NCBI RefSeq assembly: GCF_963676685.1
Contig: NC_092353.1
Location: forward strand, 53,692,001 to 53,756,000
Origin: Mytilus edulis
Lineage: Eukaryota
Length of the DNA stretch: 64,000 nucleotides
Direction of reading: 5' to 3'
This document shows, in pieces, positions 18,001 to 27,000 of this stretch (position 1 is its first letter; the number at the start of each line of letters is the position of its first letter). A program made the position numbers.

Positions 18001-21000
18001 ATCAATTTATCATTTTCGCTTTGATTTACAGAGTAAAATACTGGAATACAATTTATTTCTCTTTATTGATTACTACGTATACTTTCAGAGTATAATACTA
18101 AATGAACATGTAAACATACATGTTTCATGATTTACAGTTCGTACATCATTGTTTTTATTAATTTCCAGCTATATATTTTATCAAAAACAAAACGTTTGAT
18201 TTTTATTAATAATCCATCAAAAGACTAGTATCACAATAATCAGTGATCCGAATTATTTTGTCATTGAACAATTTTAATGATCCTAAACAAGCCATACACT
18301 TAAATATTTCCCTGTTTCCATAAATTTCAAGAATATATACTAAAGTGTTATTTGGCCTGTCTCGCTGAGCTCTATGGTTACCCGAGGGGTTGATACAAGC
18401 TATGCTTAGTGTAAGAGTGCCCTTACCTTCCTACAAGGTGTCAGTCCCAGCTAACCTCGTCTAGCCCCAGATATCAGGCGCATTGCCTTGCTCGTTCCGT
18501 GGTGAGAGAGCGATGTCATCGAGGAAGAGGCTGGAAGTACCCAACTGTTACGTCATGTCATGTGTCCCTTCGGATCCCTCGGTGATGTACCAGTACCCGT
18601 GTGACAGGTTGGGGAAACCCCCTAGAACTACGGGGCAATTACACTACACCCCCCTCCATCTTAAAAAGGAGGAACTACAGTTCCGACAAAAACGACTGTA
18701 TATCTTACTAAAACTCCCAAGGGGAAGACTGGCAACGTCTTTTACTAATTAAACCATGACACAGGGTATCCTAAGTATCCACCCCCCTTAATCCTGGATA
18801 AGGGGAAAATTGACAAAACTTAATATTTCCCAAGGAAAAAAAAAATAATTTAATTACCCATGTAAAAATAAACATATGAAAATCGAGCTCTGAACAGCTA
18901 TCTTATCTATGGAGTACCAAACTCCCAACAATTTACACACCAGAGTTGCCACAGGGTGCCAACCTCAACAGGTTCTTCAGGACAAATAACAGCCGAACTC
19001 CAGGTCGACCATAGCCATATGCTATTCCAACTTATACAGTCCTGGACATGGGTCTCATTACAAGACAATAAACTGCGTGCTCAACACGTCTAAAAACCCT
19101 GACTCTGTGTAATGTTCACATACATATACATGTATCAACTGTTCAGACCTTAACTGACAAAAATCATACTTCAAAATATAAAACTATCTCAATGTCTAAA
19201 TGACAAGTTCATTAATACCGCCCTGAATTTCCAAATGAAACTAACTAACATGTACATGTATATCTTTATACATAATTTACAACCGACTAAATACTATAGG
19301 TCTATAATCCCAAAACTGGGAAGGATGTACATGACCATAAATAATTTGACTCTTTGTCAAAAAAAAAAACCACATATATAGTGCCTCTATATAAGGATGC
19401 ATTTAACTATTTTACTACTTTAATAGTTAGTATCACCAAAATTTACATAATAACAGGGTCATGACACCACTCTTATATATCTGTTTCAACTTTTCAACAT
19501 ATTTGTACACTTTACATGTGAGAGTGTGAAGCAAAAAAAAAAAAAAAAAAAAAACTAATAAAAATCACAGAAAATACAAAACTGGTTCACACTCAACATA
19601 ATTTCAAAGGCGTTAAATCCCAAACTGGGAAAACTGTTCTTTTTTTTTTTTTTACAATTTTATTACTGAAGGCGCCTCACTTCAATGTGAGGACGGTGAC
19701 CTAACAGGTCAAAACATACACTATCTTCTAAGACTGTTCCCTCACAGATCAGTGAAACATTCCCACTTTCAGGGAATCTATCTTTTACTACCTTGTACAG
19801 TTCCGTCACAGAACTTACTCTTGCCATACACTGCAAACCTTCATACTGTATAACCACAAGTGTTGGAACTTGAGGGCTCTGACTCAACTTGAGATGTGAA
19901 GAAGAATGCTCTACCTGGGATTCAGCTAGTTGTGAAATTTGGCGTCCTAGGAGAAGTGCGGTTTCATTCTTTGGAGTATGGTGTGCATTTGTTTCATTGT
20001 CAGCAATATTGGACTGCAATTTTCTCTTTTTGCTAGATGTTTCAGTGTTCAAACTTTCACTCTCATGGTGAATTTCTTCTATTTCGTCCATTACTATGGT
20101 ACGTCCTTCTTGTTCAGACTGAACATTGTCTTCCTCCCCTTCTTTTTGAGGGATTGCTGACTCATCTTGAGCTTTGTTAACAAACACTGGCCAGAAACTG
20201 GCATTCATCTCAGCAAGTTCCTCAGGTTCAGGAGGATTTCTAGGATTGTAGCTAAATCCTTCGGCTACCATATCTTGTTGTTCAGGGCTTAAAAAGTTTA
20301 GAACTGAAGTAAGGACTCTCCAGTTGAGTAAACAGGCAGGGCTGTTTATCGGTCGCAAGCTATATCTGAAATAGTCTGTCCATCCCATCTCTTTACAAAC
20401 TGTACGATGGACTTGAATTTGTATCCCTGTAACATGTGTAGAACGGGGCACAAAAGACTTCTCATTGAGGAAATTCACCAAGTCTTTGGCAGTCACTGTT
20501 TCCTGCCTGGTTAACCATTTTGCTAGGAGCATAACCACATAAGCTCTATGTTGGTGAAATCTTCTGTCCTCCATCAGTCTTTTGGAATGATAGGTCTGAA
20601 AGATATCAGAAAGATGTTCTTCAAAACAATGTCGTTTTACGTCTCTTCTATCGACCACTACTTGGCAGTTCTTTACAGGACATTTACGGTCTGTTCGACT
20701 TTGAACACAAGTCCTCTCCCTTTTTCCACTTTTGGGACAAGTATAAAACCCAAGGCTCTCTCTTGATTCTACCTTGTCAACCCTACTGTCTCTACATTGA
20801 TCAGGCTCAGATCCCTGTGTAGATGTTGAGGCCCTCATGGCTAGGTTAGAATCTACTTGAGGAACGACTGTTTCAAGATGAAATTCAGCATTTTGCCTGC
20901 TGGCTGGGAACCTTTGTGTTGACCCTTCTGTTCTGGGTTTCTTATCTGACGATGAATCTGAAGTGTTCTTTCCATGAACAACGTTGACATTAGGTTCATG

Positions 21001-24000: not shown

Positions 24001-27000
24001 CCCTATGCCAGGTATGCAGGTAAGTATTACCTTAGGACAGGTGTTAATATTGATCATGTACCCCTGCATAGTGACTTTGTACTTTACAAAGTTATAAAAA
24101 TTTATTTGACTTTATTCAATATAATTCACAAAATTATATATATACACGGATCAACAATAATTTTTTATTCAATAAAAACTCAAGTCAAAAATAAATATAC
24201 ACGGAACACTATAAAAGCAAACTGCTCTTGTGTTTGTTTACATCCGTTTGTTTACATCTGTAAACAGAATCCAAGATGGCGACCAAATCTCGCCGCTGAC
24301 GTGACCTCGCTACCACTAAAGCAAACTTTTCAAAAAGTTTTTCCTCAGCCCAAAAACTATGCAAAAACGATGTATTTCTACTGACTTTCAACTAGAAAGT
24401 ATACCATCGGACCTGGTTTGTCTCCCTTAGACAAAAAACTTATTTTTAGATTTGACTGAAGGCACTCAAAATTTTGGAGTGATGCCAAAATGGCGTCCAA
24501 TCCCCTACAGGACCAAAATTTAAACCACCCGCAACTACCAGTAAAGTGTTATTTGGCCTGTCTCGCTGAGCTCTATGGTTACCCGAGGGGTTGATACAAG
24601 CTATGCTTAGTGTAAGAGTGCCCTTACCTTCCTACAAGGTGTCAGTCCCAGCTAACCTCGTCTAGCCCCAGATATCAGGCGCATTGCCTTGCTCGTTCCG
24701 TGGTGAGAGAGCGATGTCATCGAGGAAGAGGCTGGAAGTACCCAACTGTTACGTCATGTCATGTGTCCCTTCGGATCCCTCGGTGATGTACCAGTACCCG
24801 TGTGACAGGTTGGGGAAACCCCCTAGAACTACGGGGCAATTACACTACAATACCATAGAAATATCTGAATAAGTTTATTCAACTTAAATGCCCTGAATAT
24901 TAATATTTTTTAAGTAGGGCGAACGATCTCAGGGCGAACTTACCCAGGGCGAACATGTTATTGGGGCGAACAGTCCCGATACCGTTTGTTGTCTCTTTGA
25001 CATCATTCCACATTTCTATTCTCAATTTTATCAAAATACTTTTCATGTTTTACAATTCGTATACATTGTATGTACAAAAAATGAACATCATTGTTTTTAC
25101 TCATTTTTGACTACTTTATCAAAACAAAACGTTATTTACGGTCTCACTAATTAGCGACAAGAAGAATATTTGTTTATGATTCAAACCGATAATACATTGT
25201 ACATGTTGTACTACATGTATCTTATCTATGATTAACTTAAAGTCATATATATAGATAACAAAACAGTTGCAGTTTAATATTACATACATTTGTACATTTG
25301 TACATGACACAGGACAATCACTGACAAGTTTCAAGACTTGCTAGCCAGCTAGCAGTAACTGAAAGCCAGCACAAATACCTAATCTGTCGTACACTCTTAT
25401 TTTGCGGGTGGCTGTACCTCACTTTTTACATTAGATACCCTTTAACACCATATCATAAGGAAAACAATTGTTGATTTCTCTTAATCAAACATTTGGATAA
25501 CAATTTATAGAAAACTACCACAAGGGCCAGGGGATTTCCAGTTAGGGGAGGGAAATGTTCCCATACATTTTTGTAAGTCTTGCACTGGCGAAATGGTATG
25601 AATCAATAATCATGATATATACATTTTTGTAACTACAACAAGACGATACAATATAAAAAAAGATGTGGAATTGATTGTCAATGAGACAACTCTCCACAAG
25701 ACACCAAATGACACAGAAAGTAACAGCTTAAGGTCACTGTACAACCTTCAACAATAAGCAAAGCCAATATCACATACTCAGCTACATTTACAATGTTACA
25801 TGTAAGGAAGGTCCCAAAATCACAAATGTACATGTAAAAAATTAAAACAAAAAAACTAGTAATTGCTGAATTAATAAACAAAAAAATGAACAAAAAACAA
25901 ATATCATTAGGCCTAGGTAACAAACAAAGCAACAAAGAAGAACCACTGAATTACAGGCTCCTGACCTGGGACTGGCACATACATATACAGAAAGTGGGAG
26001 GGGGGAAGGGTTAAACATCATTGACGAACCCTCACCCTTATTATAGATATATTTATTTTAGATTATGACAAGCAGTAACAAGTTTACAAATGAAGCTCTA
26101 AATATTCTGTTCAGAAAAAATAACTTTAGATGTTTTATTTTTGCAGAGCTACATTGTATGTACTAAGTTCATGCAAATAATCAGTTTATTTCTTTTTTTG
26201 GGGTTACATGTATATACATGTATGCTTGAAGATATTGATCTGATTATTATGATTTATCATGATTATTGTATAGTTTTTCCATGACAAGTTGCATATCAAG
26301 TGTAACGTTTGTTTCAAGGTTGGGCGGTAAATACCACCCCCGGTATTTACCAGTGGTATTTACCGGTATTTACCGCCCTGGACAATACTCCCCAAGTGGT
26401 CAATACTGGCAAATACTGGTCAATTGAAATTTTCATGGTTGTTTCTACTATAAATTGAAGTAAAATCTTGATAAAAAGTCAAATATAATGTGTCAGCTTA
26501 TAAAATTAATGAATTTGATATGTTTTATTCATTTATATAACACTTATTCTTACTGATTTAAAATTTAGTTTTTATGAATTATGATATTGCATATATACTT
26601 CATTGTACTTAAGATATATATATATATATATACAAATTTATATTTGATTTCAACATGTTTAAATCAATATATTTTTATTCAAAATCATGATTTTACAGGT
26701 AATTAAAATTAAAGGTAAATAAAACTACAGGTAAATGAAGTTACATGGGTCTTTTTACCTATCACCTGGCATTGCTATGTGTGAAAATTTAATTACTAAA
26801 ACAACAGCCTCCAATAAAAGTTGACAGTACATGGGTTGAAAGTAATAAAATTGATATATGAAGACTCCCTTAAACAATAAATTATTTCCTGTTTAAAACT
26901 ATTTAACTGTGAGATAAAAATCTTCTTCATGCTGGAAATGGAAATTTGAAGCAGGGACAAAAAGTTTTTATCTTTTACTATAATATTATGTACACATTAA

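Follow-up and report, generated by a model that had tools for sequence, protein, structure and literature searches.

The 64,000-nt window analysed here (Mytilus edulis assembly GCF_963676685.1, contig NC_092353.1, positions 53,692,001 to 53,756,000 of the forward strand) contained a long terminal repeat (LTR) element of 6,509 bp on the minus strand (window positions 18341-24849). It is highly probable that this element is a complete non-autonomous Ty3/gypsy-type LTR retrotransposon, which encodes its own Gag, protease and a cargo of additional domains and is served by the enzymes of an autonomous element in trans. The evidence came from the anatomy of the insertion, the content of its single long open reading frame (ORF), and a set of related proteins, almost all from Mytilus, in part of which the domain order recurred.

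The LTRs were 308 bp long and identical at all 308 positions (the ungapped core in the repeat search was 300 nt), with boundaries set at the points where the identity of the two copies ended. The 5' LTR, found by repeat comparison, occupied 24542-24849 and the 3' LTR 18341-18648, both on the minus strand, with TG...TA termini. The terminal 8 nt of the LTR, read by eye, formed an imperfect inverted repeat (6/8). A target-site duplication (TSD), ATAC on the plus strand, flanked the element at 18337-18340 and 24850-24853, and a polypurine tract (AAGATGGAGGGGGG; 13 of 14 purines) abutted the 3' LTR at 18649-18662 on the minus strand; the duplication and the tract were read directly. The 5' leader (24070-24541, minus strand) included a primer-binding-site candidate, a 16-mer beginning TGG at 24525-24540, one base past the 5' LTR. 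An earlier reading of the same DNA, made from the sequence alone (the original prediction), had given these coordinates, the identical LTRs, the ATAC duplication and the polypurine tract, and all were at the positions that it gave.

An LTR pair free of differences, accompanied by a purine tract, a primer site and a TSD of 4 bp, is the product of reverse transcriptase (RT), ribonuclease H (RNase H) and integrase, as established for LTR retrotransposition. With zero differences over 308 bp, the divergence of the LTR pair would be below about 1% by the rule of three. A chance repeat was not an issue, because the perfect 308-bp direct repeat bracketing the 4.4-kb ORF occurred once in the window and the next-longest ORF was only 584 aa (amino acids). 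Within the 64 kb the element had no second copy, its LTR occurred nowhere else and neither flank had an empty-site paralogue, and an Rfam scan of the window returned no matches. The LTR contained no complement to the primer-site candidate, as self-priming would involve.

The single ORF ran from ATG to stop at 19663-24069 on the minus strand (1,468 aa) without an internal stop or a frameshift, and there was no second ORF of at least 150 aa inside the element. The intact Gag-protease frame of the original prediction was found unbroken, with both Gag and retropepsin above the Pfam cut-offs. The capsid-like Gag domain (aa 583-692; 21994-22323, this and all other parts of the ORF being on the minus strand) matched PNMA (aa 583-671; 28.5 bits, cut-off 25) and Retrotrans_gag (aa 600-692; 28.0 bits, cut-off 24.1). 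It was followed by a CCHC zinc knuckle (aa 834-850; 21520-21570), for which the zf-CCHC match was below cut-off (18.5 bits, cut-off 20.8) and the pattern CX2CX4HX4C was legible in the translated sequence. The retropepsin (aa 904-994; 21088-21360) matched Asp_protease_2 (aa 904-991; 28.2 bits, cut-off 24.3) and RVP (aa 904-994; 26.0 bits, cut-off 20.7). Its motifs were a DSG active site at aa 918-920 and ILGCDF at aa 986-991, and the protease is apparently active.

Upstream of the capsid-like domain were ~570 aa that are an addition to the original prediction. This region was comprised of a helix-hairpin-helix (HhH)-like N-terminus (aa 1-75; 23845-24069) and a low-complexity region rich in Q, S and P (aa 76-560; 22390-23844; Q 13.4%, S 12.8%, P 10.7%). 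The Pfam HHH_3 match spanned aa 5-43 and scored 21.8 bits in the scan of the whole ORF (21.8-23.4 bits in all), below the cut-off of 27.

RT, RNase H and integrase were missing from the ORF and from the other stop-free stretches scanned. None of the three was found by Pfam in the whole ORF at E ≤ 1 or in its last 472 aa at E ≤ 10, as had been predicted for the C-terminal third. In Pfam the last 472 aa matched only DUF4729 (16.8 bits, cut-off 26) and, at chance level, DUF3352, and a PDB sequence search of the whole ORF gave only knuckle- and protease-level noise. Outside the main frame there were 36 stop-free stretches of at least 50 aa; the 10 longest, judged most relevant, were scanned with Pfam, and RT, RNase H and integrase were found in none of these 10. 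Pol would not fit into the 1,014 bp that separate the stop codon from the 3' LTR. In the non-coding internal region between stop codon and purine tract (18663-19662, minus strand) the longest stop-free stretch on the element strand was 57 aa and had no Pfam match. Because the three enzymes were absent from the ORF and from the other stretches scanned, the element is, by its sequence, a non-autonomous derivative and not an autonomous member of Ty3/gypsy.

Past the protease the frame continued into unrelated domains, as in the original prediction. These ~470 aa contained a disordered linker, a domain of ~190 aa termed ZnF-X (aa ~1108-1296; 20182-20748), and a C-terminal ubiquitin-like (UBL) beta-grasp domain (aa 1396-1468; 19666-19884) assigned from AlphaFold2 (AF2) and Foldseek. 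The AF2 model of the last 472 aa (56 aligned sequences) had a mean pLDDT of 70.6; it was confident over one block at aa ~1126-1296 and another at aa 1396-1468, with disordered linkers between. ZnF-X modelled alone (aa 1100-1300, 52 sequences) had a pLDDT of 93 and a pTM of 0.88. The model has a C2H2 finger (C-x4-C-x11-H-x4-H, aa 1130-1152) on four short strands, then a bundle of eight helices. This fold had no PDB matches at E ≤ 0.001 (best E 1.6) and no significant matches in BFVD (best E 0.79, to a TRAF-type finger over 52 columns). The tail profile had no matches among PDB sequences, and the protein atlas offered nothing usable on ZnF-X (its top-scoring cluster, at 0.87, was unnamed). As modelled, ZnF-X is a fold without a relative among the solved (PDB) or viral (BFVD) structures searched.

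The UBL block had an AF2 pLDDT of about 77-94. Its top Foldseek matches were ubiquitin, ubiquilin, SUMO and ISG15 (target TM 0.59-0.74, E 1.8e-3 to 2e-2), with no PDB fold match at E ≤ 0.001, and it ended without a terminal Gly-Gly. A CIDE-N (PF02017) identity for the C-terminus was rejected: the tail had no match to this family at E ≤ 10 and the fold matches were generic ubiquitin-like chains. In the relative P0032, CIDE-N scored 16.5 bits (cut-off 23.5). The sub-threshold DUF4729 (PF15866) match to the tail covered only profile positions 1-37 of 200, and the same family scored 19.7 bits in the relative P0025, also below its cut-off. TatD DNase (PF01026) was absent from the window protein by Pfam.

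Relatives of the element were found among annotated proteins, in sets from which transposons are often masked out, by searches seeded on shared 5-residue words. The Gag-to-end query matched 15 of 3,195 candidates and the Gag-protease query 21 of 7,544, and together they yielded 22 different proteins. Species names were available for 21 of the 22: 12 were from M. coruscus, eight from M. edulis, and one from M. galloprovincialis. The closest relative was 81-85% identical, and the window protein itself was absent from the database searched. None of the 22 carried RT or integrase according to precomputed Pfam columns; direct Pfam scans of 14 gave the same result, and the other eight rest on the precomputed columns. 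ZnF-X was downstream of Gag or protease in 10 of the 22 (identity ~27-94%), a ubiquitin-like end was present in four, and the HhH N-terminus in seven. The satellite family of the original prediction, making its own capsid and protease, was supported by the Pfam content of the element and by these pol-less Mytilus relatives. Altogether, the annotated sequences showed that the family is multi-copy and diversified in three Mytilus species, its architecture being shared as far as domain matches define it.

Two relatives were marginal. P0164 was 26% identical. P0014 (M. coruscus, 1,908 aa) was a gene model with a STAND-NTPase and ankyrin repeats that opened with ~98 aa 66% identical to aa 686-782 of the element's Gag; either the annotation is chimeric or part of an element has been exonised.

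Deeper subfamilies (P0006-P0012 and P0158-P0163) contained an extra conserved ~270 aa between protease and ZnF-X that was absent from the subfamily of the window element. This spacer gave no RT signal and no identity in Pfam or, as taken from P0007, in the protein atlas, and PDB sequence searches of the deep relatives P0007 and P0163 likewise gave no RT signal, only knuckle- and protease-level noise. Among close copies ZnF-X was the best-conserved part: its identity to P0001-P0003 was 90-94%, with 62-80% for the two linkers flanking it, 56-90% for the protease, and 59-79% for the UBL domain. The HhH N-terminus was 65-70% identical in distant members (65% in P0006 and P0007, in which the protease was 31-53% identical). 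This pattern of identity would fit purifying selection on the folded non-pol parts of the protein.

The tail had many more relatives than the Gag-bearing proteins alone. A phmmer search with the tail against 1.84 billion representatives returned 139 proteins at E ≤ 1e-3, of which 43 were at ≤ 1e-10 and 16 at ≤ 1e-30, and nearly all of the 139 aligned to ZnF-X. The 62 tail relatives of at least 380 aa, from P0025 onward, were scanned with Pfam as a distant set. TatD_DNase was present in 39 of these 62, C-terminal to ZnF-X in the cases inspected, and RT or integrase in none. The two Cys, the two His and a P..NS......W motif were at least 90% conserved over the 62 sequences. The few relatives with a named source belonged to Mytilus, Ostrea edulis or Pecten maximus, and one was labelled as a bacterial metagenome-assembled genome. 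Only four proteins, all already known as family members, came back when longer ZnF-X proteins were sought with a profile.

The bivalve ZnF-X/TatD proteins have in common with the element the C2H2 finger, the helical domain, and a weak similarity to Pfam DUF4729. ZnF-X precedes TatD in those proteins, whereas in the element it follows the retropepsin, precedes the UBL domain and belongs to a separate clade. A neighbour-joining tree built from 110 ZnF-X domains, without support values, placed all eight Gag- or protease-linked tips in one clade of 17 tips, and this clade held none of the 44 TatD-linked tips. The tail is probably not the remnant of a longer Pol, being made of folded domains that have their own relatives, with RT or integrase in none of the 62.

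If the element is such a helper-dependent retrotransposon, its 5' LTR would drive transcription, and the resulting RNA would be message and genome alike. The Gag-protease-cargo protein would bind and package this RNA. Reverse transcription would start from the primer site and the purine tract. An autonomous Gypsy-type element of the same cell would supply, in trans, the RT and RNase H for this step and the integrase for the integration that made the 4-bp duplication. Pol would then be borrowed from a helper Gypsy and may have been replaced by the cargo, which selection within the element lineage would have kept. Our guess is that the cargo could bind nucleic acid or a partner, so as to compete for helper machinery or to handle the host, because it contains a zinc finger, ZnF-X precedes TatD DNases elsewhere, and the last domain is ubiquitin-like. 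On the element strand the stop codon shares bases with an AATAAA hexamer, and an A14 run (19640-19653) begins 9 nt past it, so the cargo may have been captured from a polyadenylated transcript, cellular or of an element; this is a lead only. A second homopolymer, T22 on the element strand, was at 19533-19554 in the same 3' non-coding kilobase.

Several observations weighed against the helper-dependent reading. No RT-bearing relative of the element's Gag was present among the 22 relatives, which came from word-seeded searches of annotated proteins only. These relatives are gene models, many of them visibly truncated or missing segments, and their architecture is approximate. The LTRs, the TSD and the primer sites are known from a single copy. 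The LTR starts with TG but its 3' end reads TA instead of the usual CA, a detail that the original prediction did not give, and integrases usually require CA at the LTR end. The primer-binding site of the original prediction stood as a TGG-type candidate, but no tRNA partner was obtained for it, the 64-kb window having no tRNA genes for comparison. The A14 run could be due to chance in a genome of 32% GC, because the 64 kb held eight A/T runs of at least 12, including two within the element. Finally, P0025, P0027 and P0031 had been candidates for free-standing ZnF-X and UBL donor genes, and were rejected; because the region upstream of ZnF-X also matched the family, they are probably partial copies and identify no donor of the cargo. 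P0032 was dropped as a host donor on the same ground.

A wider reading is put forward more tentatively, as a possibility that falls somewhat short of an even chance: the element would belong to an old, diversified, capsid-encoding satellite lineage in mussels, in which pol was durably swapped for a selected ZnF-X and UBL cargo. The cargo of such a lineage would bind nucleic acid or a partner protein, either to exploit helper particles or to blunt host control. In a bolder form of this reading the element would be part of a two-part retroelement, with pol on a separate partner carrying matching LTRs.

Taken as a full alternative, that arrangement (one half of a two-part retroelement with a dedicated pol-only partner, and no parasitism of an ordinary Gypsy) is unlikely. 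The lack of an RT-bearing Gag relative in the two protein searches would be expected from it, and an old and diversified family suggests a stable arrangement. No partner was seen in these searches of annotated proteins, and dependence on an ordinary helper accounts for the same observations while assuming less. Similarly unlikely is a host gene family domesticated from Gag and protease in the manner of PNMA or PEG10, of which this copy kept or regained LTRs. Such a family would account for the Gag score above cut-off on the PNMA model, the annotation of relatives as genes in three species and the strong conservation of a cargo domain. Against this, the identical LTRs, the 4-bp TSD, the polypurine tract and the primer-site candidate indicate recent retrotransposition and not a fixed gene. 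Each species had many paralogues, on different contigs and with identities from ~35% to 85%, and 17 of 18 protease-bearing relatives retained the catalytic motif D[ST]G[SA].

An old insertion whose LTR identity came from gene conversion or an assembly artefact is improbable: conversion between LTRs is known in general, but the ORF was unbroken across 4.4 kb, the TSD was perfect and the window contained no N. A one-off defective copy, in which an autonomous Gypsy lost pol through a simple internal deletion in frame and the tail is whatever followed integrase in the parent, is very improbable and was largely refuted. Single-ORF Gag-Pol elements can lose pol in this way, and the linker following the protease was disordered in the AF2 model. 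The Gag-protease-ZnF-X order recurred, however, in 10 of the 22 relatives, in three species and over the full range of ZnF-X identity; all 22 were without RT or integrase, as were the 62 long ZnF-X relatives, and the spacer of the deeper subfamilies was without RT signal in Pfam, PDB sequence and atlas searches. The original prediction, which had set its family apart from a single deletion copy, was borne out in this respect. Equally hard to credit is a cargo that supplies the missing machinery, with ZnF-X recruiting a cellular nuclease for unconventional integration, for although TatD_DNase follows ZnF-X in 39 of the 62 long distant relatives and the LTR ends in TA rather than CA, the window protein had no TatD or other nuclease domain, RT would still be missing, the TSD, LTRs, polypurine tract and primer-site candidate are normal products of integrase and RT, and the ZnF-X clade of the element held no TatD-linked sequences.

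Most non-autonomous LTR retrotransposons either have no coding function (LARD, TRIM) or encode Gag alone (plant TR-GAG). LARD, TRIM and ETn/MusD-type pairs keep LTRs and primer sites and take their enzymes from elsewhere, with little or no coding capacity. Unlike these, the mussel element encodes conserved domains in an intact ORF of 1,468 aa. Replication-defective transducing retroviruses have lost pol, carry a foreign segment fused in frame to Gag and need a helper. The poly(A)-like run after the cargo would fit mRNA capture as in these viruses. Transducing retroviruses are short-lived single isolates, whereas the mussel element appears to represent a long-lived genomic lineage that keeps its protease.

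For maize Bs1, Elrouby and Bureau in 2010 reportedly described a low copy number and fragments of three host genes. The cargo of the mussel element differs in consisting of whole folded domains, in containing the best-conserved stretch of the protein and in being shared by a diversified family of three species. Gene transduction by Bs1 is described in PMC7264820. Bs1 resembles the mussel element in being a pol-less LTR element with an ORF that fuses element-derived and foreign coding sequence, and is the nearest precedent for foreign cargo.

Plant TR-GAG elements, in the excerpted text of PMC8704663, have LTRs, primer sites and a single Gag-only ORF, and one transposition has been observed; they are thought to move with the enzymes of autonomous relatives, and a close autonomous relative was identified in Arabidopsis. 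The mussel element resembles TR-GAG: it lies between LTRs, has candidate primer sites, and its one ORF contains Gag but no RT, RNase H or integrase. It differs in having a retropepsin and three further folded regions in place of Gag only, ~570 aa before Gag and ~470 aa of non-pol sequence after the protease, and an animal host. An autonomous relative, as given there for Arabidopsis, was not found for the mussel element among the annotated proteins searched. The likeness to TR-GAG with a different domain set, drawn in the original prediction, was upheld, the difference consisting of the extra retropepsin, the pre-Gag region and the non-pol tail domains. An identity with Troyka was rejected, Troyka having CG...CG termini and 3-bp TSDs in the excerpted description (PMC12440569).

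A literature search, which did not cover Repbase, Dfam or survey supplements, found no account of a Gag-protease-only bivalve LTR family or of the ZnF-X/TatD architecture, and no paper was found on DUF4729. The words 'gag' and 'TatD' did not occur in the main text of a bivalve transposon survey in the form available (PMC10294476). RT-based surveys of bivalve transposons would be blind to elements of this kind, and ORFs of the family are currently annotated as 'CCHC-type' or 'peptidase A2' host proteins. If a pol-less family with Gag, protease and a constrained non-pol module is confirmed, it would be a clear case of an animal retroelement that parasitises retroelements and evolves an accessory function. 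The satellite lineage, if real, would be an animal counterpart of plant TR-GAG and, in its logic, of capsid-hijacking phage satellites. ZnF-X would be defined as a new domain family, with TatD DNase as its partner elsewhere.

Outside the element, the window contained three ORFs with propeller repeats on the plus strand. Two of these, 117-1790 (557 aa) and 44017-45771 (584 aa), encoded B-box zinc fingers and NHL/beta-propeller repeats, and the third, 51918-52700 (260 aa), encoded the propeller only. The three look like a local TRIM-NHL-like gene cluster, with the element between the first two. Two further ORFs, 36770-37312 (plus strand, 180 aa) and 37924-38397 (minus strand, 157 aa), had no Pfam match.

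Repeats to the left of the element (16814-17049, 17531-17978 and 17812-17890) included a GGAGAAA-rich 21-mer array and two direct copies of ~320 bp that were 72-78% identical. A 16/32-nt array of the GTTCGCCCTGAT type was also on the left, and its reverse complement was just to the right of the element at 24916-24954; the insertion site may lie within or next to another repeat. An interspersed repeat of ~140 bp at ~25650-25790 had copies near 29468-29604 (minus strand), 53102-53242 (plus strand) and 60810-60896 (minus strand) that were 75-83% identical, and a repeat of ~50 bp occurred near 24986-25035, 43988-44036, 53774-53821 and 16316-16362. Both are probably short non-autonomous elements.

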